Origin: a virus
Lineage: Duplodnaviria; Heunggongvirae; Uroviricota; Caudoviricetes
Reading direction: 5' to 3' (one strand)
IMG/VR virus record: IMGVR_UViG_3300042348_001285
Length of the DNA stretch: 64,000 nt
Both the position numbers and the translations under genes were made by a program. The notes under the pieces were generated by a model. It ran no database searches and had not been told where the DNA came from. It saw nothing but the letters and a program-made list of their open reading frames with translations. Below are positions 5,343 through 21,724 of the stretch, piece after piece; within the stretch, counting starts at the first letter, position 1; the number at the start of each line of letters is the position of its first letter.

Positions 5343-5537
5343 CTAGGGCCCCGTAATCAAGGGACGATCACCTTTACCCACCAAAGACTTTACCATGAGT
5401 TCAGTAAATCGCTCTTGCCTGCTGGGGCAAACTGACTGGGGGTAGCCGTCAATTGCTTTTTTCAAGGTAGCAAGCTCTTGCCATTCTGCCAGGCTAATGG
5501 GGGCTGGGCCAATGGGTGCAACTTGTTGTGAATTCAT
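5343..5537 (-). CDS. small hypothetical protein (64 aa), start overlaps the upstream stop (ATGA)
   Basis: 'AAA TGA' stop overlaps 'ATG AAT' start, giving MNSQQVAPIGPA... This indicates translational coupling. Confidence 0.5.
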   Translation of the reverse strand: MNSQQVAPIGPAPISLAEWQELATLKKAIDGYPQSVCPSRQERFTELMVKSLVGKGDRPLITGP

Positions 5538-5863
5538 TTTGAGGTGGATGGTGTTAGAGGTTCGGGGATTACCACAGCGGGTGCCATAACCTTGGGAGCA
5601 TACACAGTTAGGGCACGATCGACGGCAATGATCATACCGACCGGGGGAATACAAGCTGCGAGTTTCCACCAAAACCATGGCGCAATCGCTATCCCAGCAA
5701 ACCACCATGCCATCGTGAGTATAGACAGGGCCTTCGTGATACCGAAATCTACCTTGAGTTCGATGGTCGGTTGGTTGGTGGCGGTTTCGATTGCCTTTAA
5801 TGCAGTGTTGTCATTGGCGGGTTGTCTAGATGCGGAGCTAATTGATGCGGAGCTATCAGTCAT
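5534..5863 (-). CDS. small membrane protein (109 aa)
   Basis: Trp-rich hydrophobic segment 'LTMAWWFAGIAIAPWFWWKLAACIPPV'. Confidence 0.5.
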   Translation of the reverse strand: MTDSSASISSASRQPANDNTALKAIETATNQPTIELKVDFGITKALSILTMAWWFAGIAIAPWFWWKLAACIPPVGMIIAVDRALTVYAPKVMAPAVVIPEPLTPSTSK

Positions 5864-5929
5864 TTTAGTGGGTGTCGTTGGATCGGGTGAGTATCACTGG
5901 GAACTAGAAGCGACGGGCAATCTGATTCT

Positions 5930-5966
5930 GTTCTATTGTAGGGAGTTTACCCCCGAAAGTCAATGG
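5930..5966 (-). promoter_or_regulatory. sigma70-type promoter TTGACT-N17-TACAAT
   Basis: Reverse complement reads 'TTGACTttcgggggtaaactcccTACAAT'. Confidence 0.5.
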
Positions 5967-6365
5967 GTGCCGTTGGGATTACCAGTCACCCTCCCGCGAA
6001 CAACGAACTAGGATCGAACCAGGGCCCGCGAGTTCTAACGCAGTAGTAATTGCGTGAGTTGAGTTGTGGGCCAGTATGTTGTGGGTTTGCGGTCCAATGG
6101 ATGAGTAGGTTGAGTTTGAAGTTATTTCGGTTATGACTCGATACGGGAGAAGTTTGAAGTTTGACATTTGTTGCTCGGGGTTTAATATCGGTGTTGCGCT
6201 TCGGGTGTTGCGCTTCGGGTGAGTTAGCCACCGGGTATCAACACAAAACTTAACATTCCGATGGCAGTTTGACGGCAATGAGTTAGCTACCAGATAGCAA
6301 CACAAAACTTAACATTCCGGTAGTAACCGGGTGCAATGAGTTTGATGACAATTAGTTAAAGTTCC

Positions 6366-6392
6366 AAACGACAAAACCCCCGTTTCCGGGGG
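6366..6392 (-). terminator. Rho-independent terminator
   Basis: Minus strand reads CCCCCGGAAACGGGGG followed by UUUUGUCGUUU, just after the stop of 6414..6629. Confidence 0.7.
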
Positions 6393-6413
6393 CGCTGTGG
6401 GAAGGTATGAGCC

Positions 6414-6629
6414 TCATCCAACCCGGCGAAGGTGGGGGGCGCTGTAGCCGTCACACCAATGCCCTTCAGGTGTGCGGCGGTAGCCCGTAATGCTCTTCGG
6501 ATTGACATAGCGGACGGGGCCCTGATGTCCGCCATCATTCTGCATACAACACCAGATGACAGCCTGTGCGGCGTCGTCGGTGACGTACTCCCAGGTACGG
6601 CCGGTAGCGTCGTCGGTAACGGTGGTCAC
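6414..6629 (-). CDS. small cassette ORF (71 aa) with a GTG start in the conserved start position
   Basis: The promoter cassette TGCTACAAT...CGGAACACACC is followed by GTG ACC ACC. Confidence 0.45.
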   Translation of the reverse strand: MTTVTDDATGRTWEYVTDDAAQAVIWCCMQNDGGHQGPVRYVNPKSITGYRRTPEGHWCDGYSAPHLRRVG

Positions 6630-7055
6630 GGTGTGTTCCGGTGCGGTACTTGCATATTGTAGCACCCTGAGGTGAGGACTGTGGCTCCTGGTACCTAGGC
6701 TCGGGAAATCGTTACGGTTCGTCACATTGCCGTGGATGTCGAAACCATGGGAAAAGCCCCGGAAACCGGGGCGGTAGTGGCGGACCCGGAAAGTTACCAG
6801 CGGGCGGCCCAGACCTTAAGCTCAGCCAGGTTGTAAGTGGCCATTGCGGTCCGGTGCGGATGACTCTGTAATTATAGCATGGTTGCCAGGGGTGCTGACG
6901 GGTCTGTGAACATTCGGTAAGTTTGCGCCTCGGGTGTGATGTTACAAAACTTAACACATCAAGGCAGGGAGTTTAACGGCAAGGAGTTTACCACGAGAGT
7001 AATACACTTGTACTAGCTCACCTAGTGGCATTACCCGGTGGCAATACCCAAACAG

Positions 7056-7079
7056 CAAAAAGCCCCGGCGAACCGGGGC
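7056..7079 (-). terminator. Rho-independent terminator (UUCG-loop hairpin plus U-run)
   Basis: Minus strand reads GCCCCGGTTCGCCGGGGC followed by UUUUU, just after the stop at 7092. Confidence 0.7.
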
Positions 7080-7091
7080 AGGGCCAGATAC

Positions 7092-7277
7092 TCAGCGGCG
7101 GTAGCAAAGTTCCCGGTGGAGTGCATTGGACTTTGCGACGCAGCCCCCAAGGCTCTCGGGGCGGATCCTGGCCTCGATGCCAAGACGACGGATGGCCCGG
7201 TGGATTTCAGGGTCCGTCATCAGGGTGGCCTCTTTCTGCCAAGCGGTGAGATCAGCGATGGTAGCGACGGCGGGCAT
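7092..7277 (-). CDS. small cassette ORF (61 aa)
   Basis: The cassette 'TATAATATGTAAGTACCGCACCGGAACGCACC' is followed by ATG. Confidence 0.5.
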   Translation of the reverse strand: MPAVATIADLTAWQKEATLMTDPEIHRAIRRLGIEARIRPESLGGCVAKSNALHRELCYRR

Positions 7278-7556
7278 GGTGCGTTCCGGTGCGGTACTTA
7301 CATATTATATGCCAGGGATGGATGGGTGTCAAGGCGCTGGGCGGTTTTGTTTGCGCCCTGTAACAATGCCGGTCGGTGAGTTTACGCTTCGGGTGTCGCG
7401 CTTCGGGTGAGTTGACTATCGGGTGCGATGTTACAAAACTTAACATTCCGATGCCAATGAGTTCGACCGCAATGAGTTAAGGGTCCAAGTAGCAAGAACC
7501 CGGATAGCAAAAAGCCCCGGCAAGGCCAGGGCAAGGCAGGCAATGGGCCGGAGCCC

Positions 7557-7808
7557 TTAGGTAAGTGCCTCGATAGACTCGATAGACTGGCTCAGCATTC
7601 CCCTCAGCAGACGCAGGGTCTCAAGGGTTTCAGGGGCAGGACGGAAGATAGCCTCGCCATCGGGCCGGTACACTTCCCTCAGGGACCCAATCAGGTTGGC
7701 CAGGGCGATTCCCTCGGTGACGGCCTTGTTCATAATCCGGTCTACCTCAGCGGCGACGGGTGTGGCGGCAGTGGTTGCCGTGAATGTGATGCCGGTTGCG
7801 GTTGCCAT
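7557..7808 (-). CDS. small cassette ORF (83 aa, begins MATAT)
   Basis: Cassette-derived Met at 7808. The ORF-track N-terminal extension is promoter read-through ('CATITESPT'). Confidence 0.5.
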   Translation of the reverse strand: MATATGITFTATTAATPVAAEVDRIMNKAVTEGIALANLIGSLREVYRPDGEAIFRPAPETLETLRLLRGMLSQSIESIEALT

Positions 7809-8194
7809 TGGTGCGGTGTCGGTTGGTGACTCTGTAATTGTAGCACAGGGCCAAGGGTGCTGTGGGTTTGCCGTTGGTTTGCCGTTGGTTTTGTTTACGT
7901 TCGGTAACAATGCCGTTGAGGGTTGGCCGCTAGGAGTAATACACTTGTACTAGCTTGCCCGGTGTTGCTCTCCGGTGTTGCTCTCCGGTGAGTTAACTAT
8001 CATGTGACAACACAAAACTTTACATATCAGGGCAGGGAGTTTGGCGGCAATGAGTTTACTGTCAGGTGGCGACACAAAACTTAACACACCATGGCAGGGA
8101 GTAATACACTTGTACTAGCTCACCCGGTGAGTTTACGCTTCGTGACGATAGGCATGGCAAGGGGGCCCGGCAGGCAAGACCCCCCTAGGCACCC

Positions 8195-8329
8195 TCAGGC
8201 CTCGCCAACGACTTTCCAGCCCTTGGGTTTCAGGCTAAGGGGACCAGTGTAGACGACTTGCTCAAGGAAACCATCGCGGTTGGTGCGCTCAAGCAGCCAC
8301 TGGCTGGAGGTGGTGGTTTTGGTGGCCAT
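8195..8329 (-). CDS. small cassette ORF (44 aa, MATKTTTSSQWLLER...)
   Basis: The cassette at 8335-8380 is followed by ATG GCC ACC. This ORF is below the track threshold. Confidence 0.4.
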   Translation of the reverse strand: MATKTTTSSQWLLERTNRDGFLEQVVYTGPLSLKPKGWKVVGEA

Positions 8330-8403
8330 TGCGGTTCGGTGGGTGACTCCCGGTTAGTGACTCTGAGATTATAGCACGGATAGGCAGGGGGGCGCAAGCC
8401 CCC

Positions 8404-8616
8404 TCAGGCAGGCATCGTGAAGTATGTATCCTCTTCGTCCCATCCTTGCTCGATAAGTTCTGCGATGCCCAGCTCCCCATCTTCCTTGGAAGGGTGCAGC
8501 CAATTCAGCTCCCAGCTCCCATCGTAGCCAACCCGGAAAGTGGCACAGACGGTACCGGGTAGGAGGTGGTAGGGGTGGCCCTCAGGGCAGTAGCAGATGG
8601 AAGGGATGGTTGCCAT
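8404..8616 (-). CDS. small cassette ORF (70 aa, begins MAT)
   Basis: Cassette at 8620-8660. Confidence 0.5.
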   Translation of the reverse strand: MATIPSICYCPEGHPYHLLPGTVCATFRVGYDGSWELNWLHPSKEDGELGIAELIEQGWDEEDTYFTMPA

Positions 8617-8700
8617 GGTGCGTTGCGGTGTCGGTTGGTGACTCTGTGATTATAGCAGGGATGGGCCAGGGAACACAAGCCCCCCCAATCCCCGTCACCC

Positions 8701-9153
8701 TCAGCCAGCAACCACAGCACCCTTGGCAACCTTACGGGGGGCACGCTTGCGGGCGGGGGCCGGTGCATCGGCGGTCACAGTGGCCTTGGTTGCCTTGGTT
8801 GCCTTGGTTGCCTTAGTCCGTTTCCGTGGTGCCGGGGCCGGTGCAGCAGCCAGCAGGGCGATAGGGCCACTTGCGGCCATCAGGACGGGAACCTCAGCGG
8901 GCACGACAATTTCCTGGAACTCAATAGCGATGCCATCGATGGCTTCAACCGTGGCCCTAGCCAGGGCAGCTAATTGGTCGTTGCGGGCATCGATTGCCTC
9001 GCGGGTTTGACAACCCAGATCATAGGCAGTGTCTGCCGTGATGGTGGCCACGGTGATGATGTAGGCGATCACAATGCCAGCAATGCGGGCAGCCTTCTCA
9101 AGGGTGGGGGCCCAATCGGCCTTCAGGATGGTTGCGATGGTGGTGGTGGCCAT
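8701..9153 (-). CDS. hypothetical protein (150 aa) with a KAT-tripeptide repeat and a basic C-terminus
   Basis: Begins MATTT. A 9-bp 'ggccttggt' DNA repeat run at 8775-8810 encodes KATKATKATKAT. Confidence 0.5.
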   Translation of the reverse strand: MATTTIATILKADWAPTLEKAARIAGIVIAYIITVATITADTAYDLGCQTREAIDARNDQLAALARATVEAIDGIAIEFQEIVVPAEVPVLMAASGPIALLAAAPAPAPRKRTKATKATKATKATVTADAPAPARKRAPRKVAKGAVVAG

Positions 9154-9200
9154 GGTGCGTTGCGGTGTCGGTTGGTTGACTCTGTAATTGTACCATACGG
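9154..9200 (-). promoter_or_regulatory. representative copy of the conserved promoter-leader cassette
   Basis: Reverse complement reads 'TGGTACAATTACAGAGTCAACCAACCGACACCGCAACGCACC ATG GCC ACC'. More than 50 near-identical copies lie between 6.3 and 31.4 kb. Confidence 0.7.
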
Positions 9201-9233
9201 CAGGCAGGGGGCGCAAGCCCCCCGTACCCGCAA

Positions 9234-9425
9234 TCACTCTGCGTCGTAACCGTCGAACCATGGGCCCCTTTGCCGTGTGCGGCGACGGGCGGTAGCACTG
9301 ATGGCGGTCTTGTAGGAAGTCTCAGGGCTTTTGCAGTGGGCTTGGGCCTCAGTCAGGGTTAGACCACGGGCAATGGTGCGATCGGGGCCGTTCATGAAGG
9401 AGCGAACGATCTTGTAGGTGGTCAT
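9234..9425 (-). CDS. small cassette ORF (63 aa)
   Basis: A TACAAT -10 box at about 9445 is followed by ATG. Confidence 0.45.
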   Translation of the reverse strand: MTTYKIVRSFMNGPDRTIARGLTLTEAQAHCKSPETSYKTAISATARRRTRQRGPWFDGYDAE

Positions 9426-9867
9426 GATGCGTTCCGGTTCGGGACCCCCATATTGTATGCCATGGGTGGCCAGGTGTCAAGGTGCCGGGTTGTTTGTTTG
9501 CATTTCGTAATAATGCTAGTGGGAGTAATACAAACGTACTAGCTTACCCGGTGAGTTTGCGCTTCGGGTGTCGCGGTCCGGTGAGTTTGCGCTTCGGGTG
9601 TCGCGGTCCGGTGAGTTTGCCGGTCGGTGAGTTTGCCGGTCGGTGAGTTAACTATCGGGTGCGATGTTACAAAACTTTACATACCGGGGCAGGGAGTTTA
9701 ACCGTAATGAGTTAGCCACCCGGTGACAACACAAAACTTAACATTCCGGTGGTAGCTTCACGGCAATGAGTTAGCCACTCGGTGTCAGCACACCATGGCA
9801 GGGGGCATGTGAAACCAGCATAAAGAAAGGCCGCCGATTGGCAGCCCTTTACTATGCGGACTTTCGT

Positions 9868-10257
9868 TCACAAAGGGTTGAGATTATCATCCACATCATC
9901 CATTCTTTCAAAGGAAGGGCAATGGAGCAGATTGCCGCTTTCCGCATACCCATCGATCACATATTGTGCGTACTGCTTAATCTTCTGCACAGCCACTTTG
10001 CTGTCTACTGTCTCCACGAACTCGCCCATGTTATAGTATGAAATCCGATCACCATTGTGGAAGTGATAAACCCTCTTTAGAATGAGGCGCATCCCGCTAA
10101 CAAAAAACTCCATATCGACTTGACATTCGTCCCCTACCCCAAAGAATACGGGAAATGTATACAAATCGTTAGGGGAGGGATTAGCCCAGGGGCTGGAATT
10201 TTCCCACTGAAGGGTAACTGAAGTCGTCCCACGAGAAATGATCGAGGAGGTGGGCAT
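9868..10257 (-). CDS. hypothetical protein (129 aa)
   Basis: Cassette at 10262-10295. Lower-GC gene body. Confidence 0.5.
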   Translation of the reverse strand: MPTSSIISRGTTSVTLQWENSSPWANPSPNDLYTFPVFFGVGDECQVDMEFFVSGMRLILKRVYHFHNGDRISYYNMGEFVETVDSKVAVQKIKQYAQYVIDGYAESGNLLHCPSFERMDDVDDNLNPL

Positions 10258-10562
10258 GGTGCGTTCCGGTTGACTCTGTAATTATAGCATGGGGCGGGAG
10301 CCTGCTGTGGGTTTCCGGGGGTTTTGTTTGCATTCCGTAATAATGCCGGGTCGGTGAGTTTGCGGTTCGGTGAGTTGACCATCGGGTGAGATGTTACAAA
10401 ACTTAACACACCGGGGCAGGGGGTTTGACCGTAATGAGTTAGCCACTCGGTGTCAACACAAAACTTAACACATCATGGCAGGGGGTTTGACCGTAATGAG
10501 TTAAACCCCCAAACAGCAAGCCCCAGCAAAGCCAGGGCAGTAGCAACAACCTGATGCAACCC

Positions 10563-10766
10563 TCAACCTCGCGCAGCCCGAGAAAAGTCCAACTCAGGGT
10601 AAACCACCAACTCCCTAGGCAGGCTGCGGGCACGACGGGCCCATGCGTACTCATCGGAATACATCGCCTCGATGCGGGCATTATCACAGGCAACGGCAGC
10701 GGTGATACGTTCACGGGCGGCAGCACGACGGTCGGAGGCGATCTGGGTGCGGTAGGTGGTGGCCAT
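10563..10766 (-). CDS. small cassette ORF (67 aa, begins MATT)
   Basis: Cassette at 10775-10800. Confidence 0.5.
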   Translation of the reverse strand: MATTYRTQIASDRRAAARERITAAVACDNARIEAMYSDEYAWARRARSLPRELVVYPELDFSRAARG

Positions 10767-10954
10767 CGGGGCGTTTCGCTTGGGACCCCCTAATTATAGC
10801 ATGGTGGGGCCTGCTGTGGGTTACTAATGGTTTTGTTTGCGTTTTGTGACAGTGCCGTGGGCAATGAGTTTGCTATCGGGTGAGTTGTAACAAAACTTTA
10901 CACACCAGGGCAATGAGTTTGACGGCAATGAGTTAAACCCCGGACAGCAAACAG

Positions 10955-10977
10955 CAAAAAACCCCAGCGAACCGGGG
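10955..10977 (-). terminator. Rho-independent terminator
   Basis: Minus strand reads CCCCGGTTCGCTGGGG followed by UUUUUU. Confidence 0.65.
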
Positions 10978-10998
10978 CGAGATGGAAAGGTCGCGGTA

Positions 10999-11307
10999 TC
11001 ATGCGCAGCGGTAGAGCCAGCCAGTCGTCGGCTGAACCGGGCTAGGATCGGCCAAAATTGAAGCCAGCCATGCCCGAACACCTTTAGCGGGGGCTTTCCA
11101 GCTATCGGCTTTCAAGATGGCCCCGTCTGTCAGGCGTATAAAGCAGTAGACCGAACGCTGCGACTCGCAGGGAACACCACTGTGGATAGGCGCCATTGAT
11201 ACCTTGGCATTGCTGCGGCCCATTTGGTAGGCGTAGGCGTAGGCGCCAGCGCTCTTACTGGTCAAAATGGCGATAAAGGCATCGATCTGGGATGTGGTGG
11301 TGGCCAT
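10999..11307 (-). CDS. hypothetical protein (102 aa) of the WKAPAKG(V/I)R family, paralogous to 30961..31365
   Basis: Begins MATTT. 'FIRLTDGAILKADSWKAPAKGVRAWL' compares with 'FVDRVTGDVYKVANWKAPAKGIRYNL' in the paralogue. Confidence 0.5.
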   Translation of the reverse strand: MATTTSQIDAFIAILTSKSAGAYAYAYQMGRSNAKVSMAPIHSGVPCESQRSVYCFIRLTDGAILKADSWKAPAKGVRAWLASILADPSPVQPTTGWLYRCA

Positions 11308-11384
11308 CGGGGCGTCTCGGGTGGGGACTCTGTAATTGTACCATGGATGGGCTAGGGAACGCAAGCCCCCTAACCCCGTGGCGG

Positions 11385-11546
11385 TCAGGCGACTCTAACG
11401 TGGAGGCCCCGAGCGATCTCTTTAAGTTCGGATTCAGTGCGGAAGATCAGCATGAGCCAGAATTCTCCGGTGACTTCAAGATTGTTGGCCCTGATGACGT
11501 TCATGATGTCGTGGCGGAGGGCTTGCTTGCGTTGGGTGGCGGTCAT
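11385..11546 (-). CDS. small cassette ORF (53 aa)
   Basis: Cassette-derived start MTATQRK. Confidence 0.4.
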   Translation of the reverse strand: MTATQRKQALRHDIMNVIRANNLEVTGEFWLMLIFRTESELKEIARGLHVRVA

Positions 11547-11596
11547 GGGTGGCTCCCGGTTGGTTGACTCTGTAATTATAGCACGGGGCCGTAGAG

Positions 11597-11830
11597 TCAG
11601 CAATAAGCGTTTAGAGATCCGTATGGATTGGACGAAAGATCGAAAAAACCCTCCCAGCTTTCTGCTTCAGCGCGTGCCATTGGCATCAATGGAGAGGGTG
11701 ACTGAGAAGTGCCCCACTGGTGGCGATCATTTGCTCTAGCGAGGTGATGGTGGTGCTTAATCCTGGAGCGTGTTTCACTCCAGTAGCAAGCGGTTCCATG
11801 AAAGTAGCCGTAGCCGGTTGCATTGGTCAT
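11597..11830 (-). CDS. small cassette ORF (77 aa) with a HHHH run
   Basis: Cassette at 11845-11880. Confidence 0.45.
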   Translation of the reverse strand: MTNATGYGYFHGTACYWSETRSRIKHHHHLARANDRHQWGTSQSPSPLMPMARAEAESWEGFFDLSSNPYGSLNAYC

Positions 11831-11971
11831 GGCGGGGCGGGTGGTGGTGGTTGGTGACAGGTGAATTGTAGCATGGGTGCCGGGGCAAAGTCAGCCCCCC
11901 TGGATTCTGCGGTAAGCACGGGGGCCCGAACGGCATCCGCCGAACAGCAACCCCCCCCCCGTTCATACCCC

Positions 11972-12259
11972 TTAAAGCCCCGCAACCCTAGCAAGCTCCT
12001 GCATGGTGCAGGGGGAAGAACCCATCAGGGGCAAGATAGCAACCTCAAAATCCGAATGCAGATTCTGCCAGCGGATAGCAGCAGCGGCGGCATCTTCGAT
12101 GGACCAGCCTTCTACGGGGCCACCCTGCAGGAACCAGCGGCGCTGATGGGCGGTGGGGGTCTCAGGCTTGACGCGAGCCCACAGGCGGTAGGTTGTTGCT
12201 GGGGCGGGGGGTTGCATCGGGGCGGGGGGTTGCATCGGGGCGGCGGTTGCAGTAGCCAT
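11972..12259 (-). CDS. small cassette ORF (95 aa, begins MATATAAPMQPPAPMQPPAP)
   Basis: The cassette and a tandem 15-bp repeat encode the duplicated PMQPPA. Confidence 0.5.
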   Translation of the reverse strand: MATATAAPMQPPAPMQPPAPATTYRLWARVKPETPTAHQRRWFLQGGPVEGWSIEDAAAAAIRWQNLHSDFEVAILPLMGSSPCTMQELARVAGL

Positions 12260-12336
12260 CGTTGCGGTGTCGGTTGGTTGACTTCGGTATTATAGCACAG
12301 GGGGCCAGAGAACACAATCCCTAACCCCCCCGGTCA

Positions 12337-12546
12337 TCAGGCGGCAGCCAGGGCCAGCCAGTCGGCGGGTAGACACGTCGGATAGGGGCAGCGGCTGGTC
12401 CAGCGGACTTCTGCCCGCAGCTCGCCGCAGTCTTCCCACATGTCAACTACTTGCCCCCGCAGGCGGTTCCAGTGGAGGACGCGACCGGCGGTGTCTTCGC
12501 CGTTGTTGGCGGGGCGGACGGTGGCTCCAATGGTGATGGTGGTCAT
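12337..12546 (-). CDS. small cassette ORF (69 aa)
   Basis: Cassette at 12560-12595. Confidence 0.45.
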   Translation of the reverse strand: MTTITIGATVRPANNGEDTAGRVLHWNRLRGQVVDMWEDCGELRAEVRWTSRCPYPTCLPADWLALAAA

Positions 12547-12887
12547 CGCTGGTTGGGGGGGGGGGTGCGTTACCCTGAAATTATAGCACAGGGCCGAGGG
12601 TGCTGGGGTTGCCGGGTGTGCCGTTGGTTTTGTTTACGTTTGGTAACAATGCCGTTGGGAGTAATGCACTTGTACTAGCTTGCCTGTGGTTTGTTTGCGC
12701 TCCGGGTGCGATGTTACAAAACTTAACATTCCGATGGCAGGAAGTTTGACGGCAAGGAGTAATACACTTGTACTAGCTTGCCCGGTAAGTCTACGCTTCG
12801 TGACGGCAGGCAAGGGGCCAACATAGTGTCAACCCCATGGCATTGTCAACCCCATGGCATTGTCAACCCCTGGGCATCGTCAACCCC

Positions 12888-13127
12888 TCAAGCAGCAGCC
12901 AAGGCATCCAGGGCGGTAGCCAGGGCAGTAGCAGGGAAATAGCGGTCCTCACCTTCGCAGATGTCAGACAGGCACCAGCGGAAGCCGTTACGGGTCGCAT
13001 CAGCGGTCAGGATGTAGTCGGCACCTTTGAAGAAGGCACGGGATCCTTCACTGAATTCCACACCGGCAGGGAGGCCTTTGCGGAGAGCAGCGTTAATCAT
13101 GGTGGATGGGGTGGTTGCCGGGCCCAT
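12888..13127 (-). CDS. small cassette ORF (79 aa)
   Basis: Cassette at 13135-13170. Confidence 0.45.
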   Translation of the reverse strand: MGPATTPSTMINAALRKGLPAGVEFSEGSRAFFKGADYILTADATRNGFRWCLSDICEGEDRYFPATALATALDALAAA

Positions 13128-13398
13128 GTTGTCGTTTGGTGCGTTACCTAGTAATTATAGCATGGGGTCGAGGGTACTGTGGGTTGCCGGTGGGTGTCGA
13201 TGGTTTTGTTTACGTTTGGTAACAATGCCGGTCAATGAGTTTGCAGTTCGGTGAGTTAACTAACGGGTGCGATGTTACAAAACTTTACATATCGGGGCAG
13301 GGAGTTTGGCGGCAATGAGTTTACTGCCAGGTGGCGACACAAAACTTAACACATTGAGGCAGGGAGTTTGACGACAAAGAGTTATCGCACCGGCCAAC

Positions 13399-13422
13399 AA
13401 AAAAAACCCCGGCGAACCGGGG
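13399..13422 (-). terminator. Rho-independent terminator (UUCG loop plus U8)
   Basis: Minus strand reads CCCCGGTTCGCCGGGG followed by UUUUUUUU. Confidence 0.75.
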
Positions 13423-13449
13423 CAGGGGCAGGGCAGTATTGGGTGGGTG

Positions 13450-13662
13450 TCAGCCTACGCCTTGTCCCCAGACGGTTAAGCAGCGGTCTCGGGCGACCCG
13501 GTAGGATTCAAGCTCCCTGCGGTTAAGATCCAACATGGGGCGATAACCGTTGATACCGGCTGCACATGCCGCTTTCCAAGCAGCCTCAGCACGGTCAATA
13601 GCACATTGGGCGATATTAGCCCAAGAATCGGCGGAGATGGTTGCGGTGGTGGTGGGAGCCAT
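13450..13662 (-). CDS. small cassette ORF (70 aa, begins MAPTTTAT)
   Basis: Cassette at 13670-13700. Confidence 0.5.
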   Translation of the reverse strand: MAPTTTATISADSWANIAQCAIDRAEAAWKAACAAGINGYRPMLDLNRRELESYRVARDRCLTVWGQGVG

Positions 13663-14281
13663 TTGCCGTTTGGTGCGGTACCCTGTAATTATAGCATGGT
13701 GCAGGGGCAATTGCGGGGTGCCGTTTGATGGCGTTTGGTAACAATGCCGTTCGAGTAGTAGGTTTGTACTAGCGGACTTCGGCGGCAATTTTCGGTTCGA
13801 ACTATCGGGTGTGATGTTACAAAACTTAACATTCCGATGGCAGTTTGACGGCAATGAGTTTACCACAGGAGTAATACAAACGTACTAGCTGACTCCGGCG
13901 GCAATTTGCGGTTGAGAGTGGTACTAACGTACTACCTAACCCGGTGTCAAAATGGGGGCCACGAGGATCGGACTCGTCTTCTATTTGTTATGAGCAAATT
14001 GCATTCACCAGATTGCTAGACCCCCGTGAGTATTACATTACCCTGGCAAGTAAGTTCCGGTCACTATTCCTAGCAGCCATGGCAACCAGCACAGGCAAGC
14101 AAGCCCCTGTAGGCATGGTGCGTCCCAACCGTGCAATGAGTTTGGGGTCCTCACCAGGGAGAACGACCGGTTTCCATGGGCCCGGTGGAAAGGTGGTTTC
14201 GGTGGTCATAAGCCTGGGGGGTGACAGGTTGATTATAGCATAGGGGCCAACACAGTGTCAACCCCTCGGCAACCCCGACCA

Positions 14282-14540
14282 TCAATAACCCAGCCAAACC
14301 AGGGCCTGACCAGCATGGTTAGGGTTGACTTCAGGGTGGGAATCAGCCTTAAGGTCCGCAACATTTGCCTCATGCTGCCGTAGAAGCCGCCCAAGCTCGC
14401 GGTCAGTCAGGATCAGAGACTCGCTGCGGTCCCAAGCTGCGGCCAGAACGCTAGCGGCATAATTGTCGGGATCTTGACCCAGTGCATAATCAAAGCAGTC
14501 GGCCCACTGCTCGTCGGTGAAGGCAACCTGCTCGGCGCTG
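14282..14540 (-). CDS. cassette ORF whose conserved ATG position is lost; start uncertain
   Basis: The cassette 'TGCTACAATTACAGAGTCACTACCTGGACCGCCACC' is present, but I find no in-frame ATG before the body (...HIISAEQVAFTDEQW...). This is either a non-canonical start or a decayed gene. Confidence 0.25.
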
Positions 14541-14689
14541 ATGATGTGGCTGGTAGCGGTGACAGCGGTTGCCGTGGGTGGCGGTCCAGGTAGTGACTCT
14601 GTAATTGTAGCACACGGGGGTAGGGTGCCGTGGGTTCTGTTACGCTTCGTGATGATGGGCACGGCAAGGGGCCAACACAGTGTCAACCA

Positions 14690-14869
14690 TCACCCGATGC
14701 CTTCCCGATCGTATTCCCCGTAAGTCGATTCATATACGGCACGGTCATCGTAGAATTCAGCCTCAGCATTAGGATCGCCGTCAGCCAGTGCTTGGAGGAA
14801 TTTTAGGGTATCTTCGTCAGTGGGGGTAGCGGCGAAGGCGGCGGTAATGGTTGCTGATGTGGGGGCCAT
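14690..14869 (-). CDS. small cassette ORF (59 aa, MAPTSATITAAF...)
   Basis: A TACAAT box at about 14895 is followed by ATG GCC CCC. The ORF is below the track threshold. Confidence 0.4.
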   Translation of the reverse strand: MAPTSATITAAFAATPTDEDTLKFLQALADGDPNAEAEFYDDRAVYESTYGEYDREGIG

Positions 14870-15065
14870 TTTTTCTCCGGGGTGTCCGTCTATTGTAGCA
14901 TAGTGCTGGGGGGGGGGTTGGGGTTTGCGGGTCGGTGTTGTGCTTCGGGTGTTAGGCTTCGGTGAGGTTGCCGGTCGGTGAGTTTGCAGTCCGGTAAGTT
15001 GACTATCGGGTGCGATGTTACAAAACTTAACATTTCATTGGCATCGAGTTTGTGGTATGAGTTAC

Positions 15066-15372
15066 TTAAATGTAATTATAGGGTGCTTTTTGCGAGTAAT
15101 GTAGAATTCCGGGGTGTGTTTTCGGAGTAATGTAGAACGCCCCAAAATAAAAACCCAAAATTCAATCCTTGAGATCGATTGCAGGGGAACGGAGTTACTC
15201 CTAAAAAAATTAAAAATTTTAGGACCTTTTCAAAAACAGCATGAAAAATTCTATATTTGAATGCAAATTCTGCACCCTACTACTATAATCGCATATAAAT
15301 TATTTAATAGAAGACTCTTATCAATGAGTTATGATACATAAGAGTTCCTTATCAATAGGTAATAGCAGTAAA
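15066..15372. repeat. complex intergenic module, copy A (iterons, hairpins, AT-rich tail with IHF-like site)
   Basis: Carries 2x 'GGGTGCTTTTTGCGAGTAATGTAGAA'-type iterons, the hairpin TCCTAAAA-N10-TTTTAGGA, and TTGAAT...TATAAT. Related to the copies at 17.1, 19.9, 21.5, 22.2, 25.2, 25.7 and 29.4 kb. Confidence 0.8.
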
Positions 15373-15430
15373 GCAACAAAAAAAAGGGAGGGTTACCCCT
15401 ACCCATTCTTTGCGCTAAGTTTATCGCCAA

Positions 15431-15781
15431 TCAATCATTCTTGGCACCCCATGCACGCAACCGGCTAATCGCCTCCTCTATGCTGCTGGCATTAGACTTA
15501 CGGAATTTGGCCGTTTTGCTATAGGAGAACATTTCGATCTTCCCACCCCCGACGGAAAACATTGCGTAGCGGGAATTGTGGAAAATTCCGTTAATCCATT
15601 CTTCCTTGGGGTCTAGGGATACCTTGACGATTAGGGAAGCGTTTTGCTCACCGCCAAGTGTGGACCTTTGCACAGAAGAAACCGGGAAGGTGGCATTAAG
15701 GGCAGCAGCCAGGGTCTCACGGTCGGCTTCGGTCGGGATGAAGGCGGTTGCAAGGGTTGCGGTAGTTGCCGGGGCCATCAT
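15431..15781 (-). CDS. hypothetical protein (116 aa, begins MMAPATTAT)
   Basis: Cassette at 15790-15820. Confidence 0.5.
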   Translation of the reverse strand: MMAPATTATLATAFIPTEADRETLAAALNATFPVSSVQRSTLGGEQNASLIVKVSLDPKEEWINGIFHNSRYAMFSVGGGKIEMFSYSKTAKFRKSNASSIEEAISRLRAWGAKND

Positions 15782-15940
15782 TGCCGGTGGTTGGTTGGCT
15801 TCGTAATTATAGCACAGGGCCGAGGGTACTGTGGGTGATGTTACAAGGAGTGACAACAGGCACGGCAGGGTGCCGTCACGGCCTGCAACAACAGGCAAGG
15901 CAGGGGCTACCGGCAGGCAACCCCCCCCCCTGGCCATCAC

Positions 15941-16237
15941 TCACACAGCCGGAACCTGGCAGCCGGCAGCGATCACCCCTTTGCCTTCCATCTCATCCAG
16001 CAGGGTGACGTAAGCGGCAGCGATGGCGTTCTTGGTGGCACGGCCGGTTAGCTCAACCCGGAAACTCCGGCAGCTGAAGGGTAGGCATGTGAACGTGCTG
16101 TAGCCGGTGCTGGTCTCTACAGTGCCCTCACTGGCAGTGACCCTGGCAGGGCGGCCATTGGGTTTGTAGTAGGAGACTTGGAAAACCTTGCCGGGCTGGT
16201 CAAGGCTGTTCACGTAGAAGGAATTGGGGGTTGCCAT
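15941..16237 (-). CDS. hypothetical protein (98 aa, begins MATPNS)
   Basis: Cassette at 16245-16285. Confidence 0.5.
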   Translation of the reverse strand: MATPNSFYVNSLDQPGKVFQVSYYKPNGRPARVTASEGTVETSTGYSTFTCLPFSCRSFRVELTGRATKNAIAAAYVTLLDEMEGKGVIAAGCQVPAV

Positions 16238-16326
16238 TGCGGTTCGGGGTGGTTGCCGTTGGTTGGTTGCTCTGTGATTATAGAATGGAATGGAAGGGGG
16301 CGCAAGCCCCCCTCAACTCCTAGCAA

Positions 16327-16578
16327 TCACACAGCAGGCAGGTAAATTTCCAATGTGTAGGTAACCTCAGCCTCATTATAGGCAGCCAGCGTATCGGCTA
16401 GTTCCCCAAGCGTCACATAGTCGCTGTAGTCTCCATCGTCAATCAGGAATTCCATCTCATCGCCTTCGGCGGGTTCTTCCGATAGGTAGGGGGCACAGAA
16501 GGGGGCCAGTCCGGTGGGCATGGCGACGGGCAATGCAGCGAGGATTTCAGCTAGGGTAGGGGCGGTTGCGGTAGCCAT
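16327..16578 (-). CDS. small acidic cassette ORF (83 aa, begins MATATAPT)
   Basis: Cassette at 16585-16620. Confidence 0.5.
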   Translation of the reverse strand: MATATAPTLAEILAALPVAMPTGLAPFCAPYLSEEPAEGDEMEFLIDDGDYSDYVTLGELADTLAAYNEAEVTYTLEIYLPAV

Positions 16579-16771
16579 GGTGGTCTCGGTGGGTGACGAC
16601 AGGTAAATTGTAGCACACGGGGTCCTGGAACGCAAGGCCCCCCCTACTATTAGTTGCCAACTTTCGGTAGTATAGTCCCATACGTCAAATAGCCATACCT
16701 TTCGATGCCGTACTTGTGCAAAATATGCACACTGGACCATGGTACACCTTGTCCCCAAGTACCTGACTGAC

Positions 16772-16888
16772 TCATACGCTCAAAAGCACATTCAACGCTG
16801 TTACGCAGCCAGGAATGATCAATACGGGATGCTGATGCCGCTTGGTTGCTGCGGTAGTTGCGGTACTTGGGGGGGTGGGGAATGCCAT
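16772..16888 (-). CDS. tiny cassette ORF (38 aa, MAFPTPPSTATTAATKRHQHPVLIIPG...)
   Basis: Cassette at 16895-16925. The remainder of track ORF 16772..17197 is read-through. Confidence 0.3.
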   Translation of the reverse strand: MAFPTPPSTATTAATKRHQHPVLIIPGCVTALNVLLSV

Positions 16889-17027
16889 TGTTGCCGGTGG
16901 TTGGTTGGCTCCGTAATTATAGCACATTGCCTCGGGGGTTGGGGCCCCGGATTGCTGACTCCCAAGGTGTGGTGGACAGTTTGTAAACTGTCTATTTGAC
17001 TTCGTGAGTTTGACTTTTAGGGTTTGA

Positions 17028-17318
17028 TTCTGGGGTGTGTTTTCGGGGTCAATGTGGAATCTCAGAGTGCTTTTTGCAGGTAATGCAGAAACCCCAATTT
17101 GAAAAGTTCGAAAGTCAACCGCTGAGATCGACTGCAGGGGAACGGAGTTACTCCTAAAAAAATTAAAAATTTTAGGACCTACTGAAAAACCATCCAAAAA
17201 ATTCTACATTTGAATGCAAATTCTGCACCCTACTATCATATACTCGCGTAAAAATTATTTAATAGAAGACTCTTATCTAAATGTCTAGACAGATAAGTAA
17301 TTCTTATCAATCTAATCC
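17028..17318. repeat. complex intergenic module, copy B
   Basis: Same iteron, hairpin and AT-rich architecture as copy A. Confidence 0.8.
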
Positions 17319-17449
17319 CCCATCAAACCGCAATGTTGTGGGCTATTCGAGGATGCTAACCGGAGTCTCACACCAAATAGCAAAGGGGGCGATGCCGTAG
17401 CACCAACCCCCAAACATTAAACTAAGGTCAATCTAAGGCCAAACCAAGG

Positions 17450-17638
17450 TCAAACATAGAGACGAACCTGAGCCAGGAAGCACTCCCGGTGTTGCTTGCG
17501 AAGGATGGTGCGGATTCGCTTAGCCTGCTCAAGACTCCATACCCGGTTGCCCCCTACGGGCTCAGACCATGGTTTGCGGGTGATTTCCTGAACAGTGTAG
17601 AAGATTCGGGTTTTCTTGGTTGCGGTTGCGGTGGCCAT
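17450..17638 (-). CDS. small basic cassette ORF (62 aa, begins MATATATKK)
   Basis: Cassette at 17645-17690. Confidence 0.5.
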   Translation of the reverse strand: MATATATKKTRIFYTVQEITRKPWSEPVGGNRVWSLEQAKRIRTILRKQHRECFLAQVRLYV

Positions 17639-17809
17639 TGGTGCGTGTCGGTTGGTTGGTGACAAGTGAATTGTAGCACGGTCGCCGGGGGCTGTCAATG
17701 CTTTTGGGGTAGGGACCCGGCTTCCAAATTTTCGGAGGGGGCGCAAGCCCCTTGCCATCTGGTCATCATTCCCTAGGTATCAATGCCCTTGCAGTAGGAT
17801 CCAGTTCTC

Positions 17810-17880
17810 AAAATTTTCGGAGGGGGCGTTAGCCCCCGACTGGTTCGGGCGCCGTAGGCGGTAACCCGAACCCAATCCCA
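17810..17880. repeat. 71-bp GC-rich structured element, copy 1 (second copy at 39816..39885)
   Basis: Near-identical 'AATTTTCGGAGGGGGCGTTAGCCCCCGACTGGTTCGGGCGCCGTAGGCGGTAACCCGAACCCAATCCCA'. It holds hairpin GGGGGC-GTTA-GCCCCC and a perfect 8-bp stem GGTTCGGG/CCCGAACC that encloses CGCC-GTAG-GCGG. Confidence 0.75.
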
Positions 17881-17930
17881 GGGCATCAATCCCAGGGCAT
17901 CAATCCCAGGGCATCAATCCCATGGGCAAA
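17876..17930. repeat. microsatellite (gggcatcaatccca)x4 directly after the structured element
   Basis: Direct tandem reading. Confidence 0.85.
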
Positions 17931-18012
17931 GTTGCCAGTGGCTGATAACAATGGTAGTATAACAAAAAAGGCCAGGAAGCACAAGCCCCCTGACCATGGT
18001 AGCTAATCCCTA

Positions 18013-18315
18013 TCAGGAACACTGATTTAATGGGGTAGGATCAAAGTGAATATCCCGCTCGATGCGTAGTCCAGCTGGGCCCCGAGTAGCTTCTAGGTCC
18101 CTGAGGTCGAAGTACCCAAGTTCCCGCTCCAGACCGATAACCAACCCAAAGCATAACCCTGTCGCAGGATCCATCTCCGTGAGATACCATGTCCAGTTTG
18201 ACCAGGGGGTGAAAAATTTGGTATAGGCGATTGCTGCCATACCTTTACCGTCCTGTGCGTACAGGGCAGGAACCTTGGTGGCGATTGCCTTGGTTAGTAG
18301 CTTGGTGTTGGCCAT
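18013..18315 (-). CDS. hypothetical protein (100 aa, begins MANT)
   Basis: Cassette at 18320-18360. Confidence 0.5.
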   Translation of the reverse strand: MANTKLLTKAIATKVPALYAQDGKGMAAIAYTKFFTPWSNWTWYLTEMDPATGLCFGLVIGLERELGYFDLRDLEATRGPAGLRIERDIHFDPTPLNQCS

Positions 18316-18695
18316 GGTTGCCGGTGGGTGACGACAGGGTAATCATAGCACAGGCAGGAAGGGGGGGCGCAAGCCCCTTGCCCCCCGGTTTTGTCCCTCA
18401 GTCTGGAATTGATTGGCCGTAGCGGAGGGGTTCGGCTTCTTTCATTACCTAATAGCTGCATGAATGTTTAATAGCCCCATGGTAAACCACGCTCACATTC
18501 TCATATATTCTTTGTTGAAAACAAAGACTTGGCATCATTCATGCAGGTTTTCGGCTCTTACTTCACCTCATTTAACTCTCGCTGAGACAATGCGAGTAGC
18601 CCCGTTGACTTTGCGGTTTGGGTGGTGGTGGTGGGTGACTTCGGTAGTATAGCACTAATGGGAAGGGAACGCAAGCCCCCCCGACATGCCAATAA

Positions 18696-18869
18696 TCACT
18701 TGCTATCGGTCACTTCCCAAGCAGTGATTTCTTGGTCTACCAAGTTGCCTTGACCGGGATGCGGAAAGAAGTTGTAGTCCATATCGCACAGGGCATCTTC
18801 CATGTTCACACCCTCTTTAAGGTCAAAGGTGACCTTCACAGTGACGGTGGCGGTGACTTTGCGGCTCAT
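18696..18869 (-). CDS. small cassette ORF (57 aa) behind two tandem cassettes
   Basis: Two promoter cassettes at 18895-18910 and 18945-18970 have no ORF between them. The Met sits at 18869. Confidence 0.4.
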   Translation of the reverse strand: MSRKVTATVTVKVTFDLKEGVNMEDALCDMDYNFFPHPGQGNLVDQEITAWEVTDSK

Positions 18870-18999
18870 GGCGGTTCGGTGGTTGGTGACAGGGTAATCA
18901 TAGCACGGGCAGGCAGGGGGGCAAGCCCCCTCAACCGCCCGACAAGTTGACTTCGGTATTATAGCACAGGTAGGCAGGCAGGTAGGCAGGCAGGCAGGG

Positions 19000-19248
19000 T
19001 CACTCCTCCCACAGTGGGCCAGCCGACATTGCGCCAACGGGGTCACCTAAGTTTTCTGCGCTAACCGGGACGGCGGCAACATCATAGCTGGGGTGGATTT
19101 CGCCGGCTGCATTACATACCCAGCAATCGACCGTCCAAAAGCGGCCCGTGTAAATCGGGTTATAGCAATCATACTCTGGACGGTTTTCATCGTGCGGAGC
19201 ATCAGCCTGATAGATCAAGCGAGCGGAAACGGTTTTAGCGTCAGCCAT
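19000..19248 (-). CDS. small Cys/Trp-containing cassette ORF (82 aa, begins MADAKT)
   Basis: A variant cassette with a TAATAAT -10 box and a C-run leader lies at 19250-19290. Confidence 0.45.
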   Translation of the reverse strand: MADAKTVSARLIYQADAPHDENRPEYDCYNPIYTGRFWTVDCWVCNAAGEIHPSYDVAAVPVSAENLGDPVGAMSAGPLWEE

Positions 19249-19291
19249 GGTTGGGGGGGGGTGGCGGTTGGTTGGTGTTGTCGAGTAATTA

Positions 19292-19582
19292 TTAGCGTTT
19301 GGCAAGTTTGCCAGTGGCCAGCATTCCATCACCTTGGCCGCGACAATTAAAAACACGACCATCAGGCAAGCGCACAACAAAGGAATACATCCTTGTTGCG
19401 TAAGGGCCGGTACGCCATGATCCAGTTACGGCACCAGTCCCTATTTGATTACCATGCCAATCCGTAAAGGTCCAATGAGAAGTCTGGAAGAAACCTTTTA
19501 CGTTTGACCCATTGGCTGGACGCTTGGCGTAACAAGCAATGCTGTCATTAGCCTTACAATTGGTTTCAACTAAAGTGACCAT
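19292..19582 (-). CDS. hypothetical protein (96 aa)
   Basis: Cassette at 19630-19660. Confidence 0.45.
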   Translation of the reverse strand: MVTLVETNCKANDSIACYAKRPANGSNVKGFFQTSHWTFTDWHGNQIGTGAVTGSWRTGPYATRMYSFVVRLPDGRVFNCRGQGDGMLATGKLAKR

Positions 19583-19744
19583 TGCATAATCCGGCTATCT
19601 GCCGGTGGGAGGAGGGGGCCGGGTTTGTCCCGATGGGTGAATTATAGCACATTGTCGGTGGTGCTGGGGGTCCAGGATTGTTGACTCCTGGGGTGTGGTG
19701 GACAGTTTGTAAACTGTCTATTTGCGTTGGGAGTTATGACTCTG

Positions 19745-20060
19745 GGGTTGGGTGCCGAGGGTGCATTTTGTGAGTAATGTGGAACCTTAGGGTGCGTTTT
19801 CAGGGCAATGTGGAAACTCTGAAATCAAAAACCGAAAATTCAATCCCTGAGATCCGTTGCAGGGCAACGGAGTTACTCCTAAAATTTTTGAATTTTTTAG
19901 GACCTAGTGAAAAATGAGTAAGAAAATTCTACATTTGAATGCATATTCTGCACCCTACTATCATATACTCGCGTAAAAATTATTTATAGTACACTCTTAT
20001 CTAAATATCTAAACAGATAAGAAATTCTTATCCATAAGCACAATCAATGAGTTAAGAACC
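19745..20060. repeat. complex intergenic module, copy C
   Basis: Iterons 'GGGTGCATTTTGTGAGTAATGTGGAA' and 'GGGTGCGTTTTCAGGGCAATGTGGAA'. Also the hairpins, a palindrome CTTATCT-N12-AGATAAG, and 'TTATCCATA', which is DnaA-box-like. Confidence 0.8.
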
Positions 20061-20065
20061 AGGAG

Positions 20066-20093
20066 ACAAAAAAAGGGGGGGCAACCCCCCCCC
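20066..20093 (-). terminator. Rho-independent terminator G7-CAA-C9 plus U7
   Basis: Minus strand reads GGGGGGGGGUUGCCCCCCC followed by UUUUUUU, just after the stop at 20099. Confidence 0.8.
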
Positions 20094-20098
20094 GACCA

Positions 20099-21716: not shown

Positions 21717-21724
21717 TATGTTGT

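Follow-up and report, generated by a model that had tools for sequence, protein, structure and literature searches.

A candidate promoter and 3' hairpin module between small gene cassettes of an uncultured large phage

Small cassettes and a recurrent hairpin at the -35 position

The DNA analysed here, called the window below, is a stretch of 64,000 nt from the IMG/VR virus record IMGVR_UViG_3300042348_001285 (Caudoviricetes) and covers 64 kb of an approximately 280-kb genome. It contains a region of small open reading frames (ORFs) on the minus strand, each with an extended -10 promoter of its own (Table 1). Most of these cassette ORFs had no Pfam match; the matches obtained were to DUF2958, DUF7717, cREC_REC and J-domain families. 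At the junctions between the cassettes a short GC-rich hairpin recurs, GGGGGC-TTGC-GCCCCC on the coding strand, and this element is the subject of the present analysis together with the promoter that it overlaps. The sequence GGGGCGCAAGCCCC was present 11 times in the window at up to two mismatches, always on the plus strand, for a mean of 0.87 in shuffled sequence, and none of 100 shuffles reached 11. The 8-mer core GCGCAAGC occurred six times for 1.4 expected. The recurrent hairpin described in an earlier note on this DNA is thus real. The motif belongs to a longer repeat that includes a TATAAT-like box and about 40 nt further (repeat families D5, D7, D9 and D13). A search for extended -10 boxes with the pattern TGnTAnnnT gave 67 matches on the minus and 13 on the plus strand of the window. 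Since genes and promoters of the cassette region lie on the minus strand, the transcribed loop is UUGC or UUGU. The GNRA tetraloop assigned in the earlier note was rejected, as its GCAA is the antisense reading of the element.

Relatives of the window were used for comparison. The 279-kb IMG/VR contig IMGVR_UViG_3300044846_005229 bears the same modules, and a 20-kb stretch of it, locus L011, is 85-93 % identical to the window in mosaic blocks. Metagenome contigs were scanned for the hairpin with a -10 box behind it, and 47 loci were returned, about 25 of them with several cassettes of the same kind. From the window and its relatives 253 distinct promoter modules were collected. A TTG was located 16-19 nt from the -10 box in 118 of the 253, and in 103 of these 118 the distance was 17 or 18 nt. 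With this spacing to an extended -10 (TGCTAYAAT), the loop TTG represents the -35 (TTGCGC), and the C-run of the 3' arm occupies the spacer between -35 and -10. Loci chosen without regard to a hairpin yielded the consensus GGGGGnTTGCnnnCCC...TGCTATAAT...GTCACCAACC. The leader has the consensus TACnnnGTCACCAACC..., is rich in C and A and covers 22-40 nt from -10 to ATG; its consensus contains no Shine-Dalgarno sequence (no GGAG). Upstream of the -35 the modules have no AT-rich stretch, instead the G-run directly follows the stop codon.

The hairpins lie close to the upstream stop codon, as had been noted. The distance is not confined to the 3-10 nt given there: the 5' end of the hairpin was found 0-17 nt past the stop in the window, with a median of 12 nt for 47 junctions from all loci. 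Compact junctions measure typically 74-84 nt from stop to ATG. Eleven of the listed copies, at about 8385, 8660, 9212, 11350, 12300, 16295, 16630, 17970, 18365, 18670 and 18915, each lie over a -35. Two others had to be removed from the list. The copy near 17735 is separated by about 45 nt from the TTGACA downstream, which belongs to the promoter with -10 at 17678, and the sequence near 20870, a promoter with TTGACG, folds only weakly. Within 8-19 kb of the window 13 hairpin-bearing promoters were present, few were present in 31-64 kb.

Nearly all cassette ORFs between 6000 and 31000 begin with ATG GCC ACC ACC, encoding MATTT or MATAT at the protein start. As these starts are near-universal, the repeated module extends about four codons into the genes, and this reach into the first codons may double as a translation-initiation signal.

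A second class of promoters was observed on the minus strand with -10 boxes at 7845, 10289, 10801, 12588, 13162, 14612 and 15814. These promoters share the extended -10 and the leader with the hairpin class, but are without the TTG. In 28 of 135 TTG-less modules a box AACCCACAGCA begins 21-22 nt upstream of the TGn. Like the Mot-box PmSLs of phage nt-1, such promoters may depend on an activator and form a 'middle' class. Both -10 boxes of a tandem pair were located at 18897-18975 (minus strand): the boxes at 18966 and 18905 are 61 nt apart, the hairpin promoter sits within the leader of the first promoter, and a CCTGCCTGCCTACC repeat lies upstream.

Pairing on the coding strand

Several distinct stem sequences were found, all with the distance from TTG to -10 maintained. 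Besides GGGGGC/GCCCCC these are GGGTTAGGGGGC/GTTCCCTRGCCC (with GTTCCCT(A/G)GCCC as 3' arm), GGGTTAGGGA/TCTCTGGCCC, GGTCAGGGGGC/GC(C/T)TCCTGGCC (GCYTCCTGGCC), GGGGTTGACAC/GTGT(T/C)GGCCCC and GGGGTTGACG/CGTTGGCCCC. Stem lengths range from 6 to 13 bp and fold energies from -15 to -24 kcal/mol. The TTG is located in the loop of some types and in the 5' arm of others, which indicates two overlapping constraints, the promoter box and the fold.

The base pairs were counted in a hairpin search that scored G-T and A-C equally and was confined to the window, L011 and L009. The 21 hairpins enclosing a -35 TTG contained 150 Watson-Crick, 28 G-T and 3 A-C pairs on the coding strand. A mutation bias between the strands was rejected as cause of the G-T excess, as the background shows no comparable skew: between window and L011 the coding strand has 246 C/T versus 216 A/G differences. 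Fold energies agreed with this asymmetry. Promoters with TTG had a mean of -15.3 kcal/mol on the coding versus -12.9 kcal/mol on the antisense strand, for TTG-less promoters the values were -6.5 and -10.7 kcal/mol, respectively. Individual copies are given in Table 1; the one with -10 at 9195 is a near-perfect palindrome and folds on both strands.

In an alignment of 51 copies 76 % of the cells were paired. The inner six pairs were nearly always paired and varied by one-sided changes from G-C to G-U, except for two A-U cells, while the outer pairs differed between the hairpin types. Nine pairs showed changes on both sides; shuffles gave 6.4, and nine was reached by 7 of the 500. The covariation analysis proposed in the earlier note thus gave a modest signal: two-sided changes are in excess over the shuffles, and the inner stem varies on one side only. 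The fold appears to be selected in the single-stranded form of the coding strand, most likely as RNA in read-through transcripts. A promoter combined with a coding-strand-specific hairpin is the claim that we hold with high confidence.

These data bear on two readings in which the RNA fold has no role. An inverted repeat over the -35 might be a DNA operator for a dimeric regulator of phage or host that turns the early promoters off or on. The core GGGGGCTTGCGCCCCC is indeed a perfect palindrome, overlaps the -35 and recurs at many promoters, and Arbiol et al. speculated on a protein binding GGGG...CCCC (PMC2839356). An operator predicts no strand asymmetry, whereas 28 G-T faced 3 A-C pairs on a symmetric background. 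Moreover, the copies pair through widely different sequences and in stems as long as 13 bp, the repeat centre shifts relative to the TTG (loop or 5' arm), and the hairpins track a short distance to the upstream stop codon. We regard an operator as highly improbable. Alternatively, the pairing could be functionless, the repeat having spread with the promoter by duplication and the G-run and C-run belonging simply to the promoter DNA. Near-identical paralogues are frequent among the copies, and the inner stem is nearly without two-sided changes, as would be expected in that case. The stem was kept by several unrelated sequence solutions, background substitution does not account for G-U being so much commoner than A-C, and the hairpins are enriched at compact junctions and reach z values down to -4.65 on the coding strand. 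The probability of pairing without function is judged to be very small indeed.

No known RNA family was recognized in the element. At the gathering threshold Rfam returned only one tRNA in the 64 kb; the matches in 17650-18700 were weak chance matches at E up to 1.

Junction length and terminators

Hairpins and ordinary terminators are distributed by junction length. A strong hairpin was present in 47 of 74 junctions of up to 110 nt, in comparison to 18 of 68 junctions above 250 nt (Fisher p = 1e-5). The long junctions carry canonical terminators, e.g., GCCCCGG-TTCG-CCGGGGC followed by T5-8 at 7079, 10978 and 13423; in the cassette region as a whole these terminators have TTCG, GAAA or CTT loops before T5-8. 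In long junctions the terminator is succeeded by other repeats in arrays and by promoters of the second class. This distribution indicates that the hairpin replaces the terminator where the next promoter follows immediately.

The arrays between canonical terminators and the second promoter class consist of short repeat families and cover 200-600 nt. On the minus strand the repeats include TGTTAAGTTTTGTAACA, AGCTAGTACAAGTGTATTACTCC and AACTCACCG/AACTCATTGCCG (families D2-D4, D6, D10, D12 and D16-D18). Their appearance is that of clustered protein-binding sites or of promoters read by another polymerase.

Probable exchange of cassettes at the hairpin

The earlier note had offered a recombination hotspot as one option, and the comparison of relatives argues for it: cassettes appear to have been exchanged at the hairpin. 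L011 is near-identical to the window throughout the upstream gene and the hairpin 11349-11376, with a single stem change from U-A to U-G. Past this hairpin the similarity drops over the -10 and leader, and L011 has another gene as the ORF. Another window cassette, about 12798-12328, is missing from L011; the junction is the 5' edge of the hairpin 12300-12329. For a wider view 301 promoter-anchored ORFs of all loci were clustered into 95 families. Thirty-four families occurred two or more times with a neighbour closely downstream, and 14 of these had more than one such neighbour. Family 26 was followed by 27 directly, by 67 and then 27, or by 36 and then 27; likewise family 6 preceded 7 directly or with 39 in between. 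What stayed constant at the variable junctions was the upstream gene end together with the hairpin core; spacer, -10, leader and gene differed. Gene 39 is bordered on both sides by hairpin repeats of GGGGTTGACA. Where the gene is absent, one copy without a -10 is left, the pattern expected from excision between flanking modules. One chimeric hairpin combined the 5' arm of the long type with the 3' arm of the short type. Of the blast alignment ends, 35 % fell no farther than 60 nt from a -10, versus 18 % at random; as other repeats make this measure noisy, the argument relies on the junctions compared above. With hairpin core (GGGGGCTTGCG), promoter and leader repeated dozens of times, the modules would provide patches of homology for insertion, deletion and swap of cassettes.

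Tandem half-promoters (GGGGTTGACAATGCC, two to three copies) were observed in front of a full hairpin in the window at 12830-12880 (minus strand) and at junctions of L009 and L115. In some relatives the hairpin after the half-promoters is without a -10, which resembles the degraded '1/2 PeSLs' of T4-like phages.

A dedicated recombinase acting on folded single-stranded DNA, as on the attC sites of integrons, would be another route to the exchange of cassettes. The fold is strand-specific and tolerant of G-T, one hairpin stands at the 3' end of each small cassette in a single orientation, and relatives differ in cassette content with junctions at the hairpin. The stems are simple, lack conserved extrahelical bases or bulges as well as R and L boxes, and comprise 16-30 nt; attC sites are much longer. 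Tyrosine or serine recombinases were absent among the about 40 window ORFs scanned with Pfam and PHROGs, a result for the window only. Each cassette has its own promoter, unlike in integrons, and homologous exchange in a module of about 100 nt suffices. An attC-like site is, in our estimate, the least probable reading of all. The hairpin could furthermore be the site of a phage RNA-binding protein or nuclease, which would set 3' ends without a U-tract and pass the polymerase to the overlapping promoter, in a host phylum without Rho and with mostly unexplained transcript ends, or the site of an integron-like capture recombinase. Taken together, these variants are considered very unlikely, and the integron-like system was set aside with the recombinase not found in the scanned ORFs.

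A proposed composite module of promoter and 3' hairpin

We propose as the probable overall picture that the element is a composite module of promoter and 3' hairpin, comparable in type to the promoter(early) stem-loops (PeSLs) of T4-like phages and located in an early-type cassette region, in which the hairpin acts on read-through RNA as attenuator or protector and the module serves as substrate for shuffling. The hairpin lies upstream of the start site of its own promoter and is thus present only in RNA begun at an upstream promoter. In such read-through RNA it would act as an attenuator or leaky terminator and would at the same time shield the 3' end of the upstream message as a stem. It may insulate the closely packed tandem promoters from each other. 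As DNA, the same nucleotides would double as the -35 of the next promoter, presumably of the host sigma70 type. The repeated module would finally be the homology at which cassettes get inserted, deleted and exchanged. The earlier note had suggested a PeSL-like 3' hairpin with promoter as well, and this suggestion is strengthened: the hairpin starts just past the stop, encloses the -35 TTG at a fixed distance to the extended -10, and maintains its pairing across different sequences with coding-strand G-U pairs, and a PeSL subclass overlapping the -35 is known (PMC2839356). For its further option, a role in RNA stability or termination, the support is indirect.

Several points weigh against the proposed module. 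We inferred promoter activity, termination and 3' ends from the sequence. A U-tract, defined as at least 5 T within the 8 nt after the hairpin, followed 5 of 47 hairpins in all loci; 11 of 47 had at least 4 T. Termination at the hairpins may be weak, and their main role is perhaps the stabilisation of RNA. The classical covariation is modest and not strong evidence by itself, and the tolerance of G-T fits RNA and single-stranded DNA alike. The metagenome loci were found by a pattern already requiring GGGGC..YYCCC, so that only the window, L011 and L009 are free of this bias. Many copies are paralogues derived by duplication, and their counts do not represent independent events. The host assignment, presented below, rests on one gene acquired from cyanobacteria.

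Termination in Synechococcus elongatus tracks the strength of the U-tract, with read-through decreasing as it rises (PMC12642595). With so few U-tracts and this dependence, a leaky attenuator or 3' protective stem is a likelier function than a full stop. The earlier note had stated that no copy is followed by a U-tract, which holds for most copies, but not for 17970-17995, where TTTTTTG follows.

The hairpin might be a 3' stabiliser or processing landmark only: the polymerase would read through every junction into long early transcripts of many genes, the upstream segments left by cleavage or 3' trimming would be protected from exonucleases, and termination would not occur. The scarcity of U-tracts suits this idea, given the importance of their strength for cyanobacterial termination. 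The phage may use the canonical U-tract terminators elsewhere in the region for full stops, and a coding-strand-specific fold is compatible with any RNA role. The stems of 6-13 bp are, however, too short for RNase III, a signature of a processing site was not seen, and a U-tract does follow some members of the family, namely 17970-17995 and the related hairpins of L102 and L140. In Escherichia coli, a GC-rich PeSL stem-loop by itself lowered reporter expression about as much as the terminator rrnB T1 (PMC2839356). A stabiliser without any termination is considered unlikely, and we prefer the composite module with attenuation.

Phage lineage and host

A looser pattern applied to viral contigs gave 88 loci; multiple copies were present in the 279-kb contig only, the other loci were single and unrelated. 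In 185,579 bacterial and archaeal genomes the pattern of hairpin and -10 had six single chance matches, none of them cyanobacterial. A near relative was not found among 50,697 phage records by megablast of 15 kb and 20 kb. Protein searches against cultured phages yielded distant matches only, with 26-46 % identity. The window encodes a full-length cysteinyl-tRNA synthetase that is 58-60 % identical to the enzymes of Cyanobium, Synechococcus and Vulcanococcus and 81-93 % identical to metagenome proteins. A picocyanobacterial host is likely. A thymidylate kinase and an HNH endonuclease are also encoded in the window. No T4 core gene was detected among the about 40 scanned ORFs.

Further repeats and coordinates

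A non-coding element of about 75 nt was observed twice on the minus strand, at 17805-17880 and 39815-39890, with one mismatch between the copies. It contains two hairpins, GGGTTCGGG...CCCGAACC and GGGGGC-TAAC-GCCCCC, followed by TCCGAAAATT; tandem repeats of GGGATTGATGCCCT precede the first copy. The element had no Rfam match. An AT-rich repeat of about 280-330 nt (D1) occurs in at least seven copies among the GC-rich cassettes and also in L011; it contains inverted repeats GATAAG...CTTATC. A 64-nt unit (D19) is present in three exact tandem copies and a diverged fourth.

Table 1. Hairpin modules and other features of the window. Positions count from the first letter of the window; fold energies are given in kcal/mol with z values in brackets.
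Feature	Position	Strand	Fold, coding	Fold, antisense	Remarks
Cassette region	5500..31000	-			about 36 small ORFs (37-157 aa), all minus
GGGGGC-TTGC-GCCCCC (focal copy)	8368..8403	-			hairpin 8403-8388 directly after upstream TGA 8406-8404
Promoter of focal copy	8376-8368 (-10)	-			-35 TTGCGC 8397-8392; spacer 18 nt; -10 TGCTATAAT; ATG 8329
GGGGGC-TTGT-GTTCCC	8649..8685	-			hairpin 8684-8669; two coding-strand G-U; -10 TGCTATAAT; upstream stop 8703-8701
CGGGGGGC-TTGC-GCCCCCTG	9187..9224	-	-23.4 (-3.3)	-18.0 (-2.5)	-10 TGGTACAAT (at 9195); upstream stop 9236-9234
GGGTTAGGGGGC-TTGC-GTTCCCTAGCCC, 12 bp	11335..11376	-	-21.4 (-2.9)	-12.0 (+0.6)	three G-U; -10 TGGTACAAT (at 11343); downstream gene replaced in L011
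GGGGC-TGACTTT-GCCCC	11865..11898	-			encloses degenerate -35 CTGACT; -10 TGCTACAAT
GGGGGTTAGGGA-TTGTGT-TCTCTGGCCCCC, 12 bp	12289..12329	-	-21.1 (-3.05)	-11.2 (-0.4)	three G-U; -10 TGCTATAAT (at 12297); junction of cassette absent from L011
GGGGTTGACAC-TGT-GTGTTGGCCCC	14232..14265	-			consensus TTGACA in 5' arm; three G-U; -10 TGCTATAAT
GAGGGGGGC-TTGC-GCCCCCTTC	16277..16314	-			-10 TTCTATAAT; upstream stop 16329-16327
GGGGGGGCC-TTGCGTTC-CAGGACCCC	16607..16643	-			imperfect copy; -10 TGCTACAAT
GGTCAGGGGGC-TTGT-GCTTCCTGGCC, 11 bp	17956..17995	-	-20.0 (-4.65)	-10.0 (-1.25)	TTTTTTG, then -10 TGTTATACT (at 17964); sole window copy in form of canonical U-tract terminator
GGGGC-TTGC-GCCCC with outer extension	18342..18379	-			-10 TGCTATGAT; ATG 18315 (DUF2958 gene)
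GGGGGGGC-TTGC-GTTCCC	18646..18682	-			two G-U; -10 TGCTATACT; upstream stop 18698-18696
AGGGGGC-TTGCC-CCCCT	18897..18931	-			-10 TGCTATGAT; just downstream of second promoter, -10 at 18966
GGGGC-TTGC-GCCCC, free-standing	17738..17751	-			not at a -35
GGGGGC-TAAC-GCCCCC, free-standing	17823..17836	-			loop without TTG; no promoter after it; part of the 75-nt element
GGGGG-TTGACG promoter	20837..20870	-			18-nt spacer; TGCTACAAT; not a GCAA-type hairpin
Repeat arrays	7380-8160, 9480-9830, 10310-10540, 10820-10990, 12610-12880, 13190-13440, 13710-13950, 14930-15060, 21200-21350				
AT-rich repeat (D1)	about 15081-15397, 17031-17314, 19759-20083, 21499-21663, 22112-22293, 25073-25851, 29266-29543				
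64-nt unit (D19)	21815-22000				three exact tandem copies; diverged fourth at 21752
tRNA-Met (CAT)	13953-14025	-			inside cassette region
cREC_REC receiver domain	26152-26526	-			
Pentapeptide-repeat protein with DUF5758	41529-42302	-			
Cysteinyl-tRNA synthetase	43848-45326	-			
DnaN-type sliding clamp	50293-51462	-			
CCA-adding/poly(A)-polymerase head domain	56964-57713	-			
tRNA-Ser (TGA)	62328-62412	-			near window end; only tRNA at Rfam gathering threshold

Comparison with known systems

With intrinsic terminators the elements share a GC-rich hairpin just past the stop codon on the transcribed strand, and the copy 17970-17995 has the full U-tract. They differ in that 42 of 47 hairpins are without U-tract and the loops are held to TTG(C/T). 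Hairpin-only ('I-shaped') terminators and the stems of repetitive extragenic palindromic sequences are likewise stable and U-tract-less, stand at the 3' ends of genes in multi-gene transcripts and are credited with attenuating transcription or blocking 3' exonucleases. Unlike the elements described here, these are not known to be fused to a promoter or to form homologous modules flanking mobile cassettes. The attC sites resemble them in a strand-specific, imperfect hairpin at the 3' end of each co-oriented small cassette and in the variable cassette content; the differences are the lack of an integrase in the scanned window ORFs, the missing code of extrahelical bases and the promoters owned by the cassettes. 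Phage morons are also single genes with their own expression signals in a phage genome, but have no conserved repeated flanking module, whereas the module is here the shared homology. The early promoters of the N4 virion RNA polymerase have a short GC hairpin as well, extruded from the DNA and with a 3-nt loop, and are not known to have -35 and -10 boxes. The near-consensus extended -10 and the TTG at 17-18 nt point to a host enzyme of the sigma70 type, unlike in N4.

Cyanobacteria are without Rho, and canonical terminators end only 22 % of the transcription units in one species (PMC12642595). If the assignment to a picocyanobacterial host is true, the U-tract-less hairpins would be natural test cases for transcript ends in that phylum. 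More than 250 distinct modules with strand-specific pairing and natural swaps are a good substrate for studying the shuffling of cassettes.

The closest likeness in architecture is with the PeSLs. In the phages RB49 and phi1 the PeSLs are small cassettes consisting of strong sigma70-like promoters and stem-loops, often polyG/polyC and with G-T pairs; five positional subclasses were distinguished, one with the stem-loop over the -35 (PMC2839356). These PeSLs crowd the hyperplastic regions, between genes of unknown function, and crossovers between them were mapped, one inside the loop (PMC2839356). Mini-circles arising by recombination between flanking modules are a further trait of PeSLs. Comeau et al. 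(2014) extended the PeSLs to PST/T4 and nt-1/KVP40 and described half-PeSLs and a second, middle-promoter type (PMC4122927). Among the papers retrieved on PeSLs, the phage examples are in T4-like phages only. The window shares with them the compact module from stop to ATG, the sigma70-like promoter with -35 and -10, the polyG...polyC stem-loop with G-T pairs, the location in a variable region whose small ORFs have no known function, the adjoining insertions, deletions and replacements, and the degraded half-copies (GGGGTTGACAATGCC). The modules of the window differ in the absence of both the AT-rich stretch before the -35, described as typical of PeSLs, and the Shine-Dalgarno sequence that belongs to their motif, and in an extended TGn type of -10. 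The -35-enclosing hairpin is dominant here and minor in RB49 and phi1, and the repeat extends into codons one to four. With a DnaN-type clamp and no T4 core gene in the ORFs scanned, the phage does not look T4-like. Because the sequences are unrelated to the PeSLs of the T4 type, the likeness concerns architecture, not descent. Those features in the summary definition of the PeSL authors that can be assessed on sequence appear to be present in the window. The same design thus recurs with unrelated sequence in a different lineage of uncultured giant phages, probably on a new host phylum, and this lineage is found in many contigs from lake-type metagenomes. This suggests that the fusion of a 3' hairpin with the next promoter is a convergent, general means of large phages to pack small, independently expressed genes and to exchange them as cassettes. 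By architecture and behaviour the modules of the window would be a new example of the PeSL kind and not a new class.

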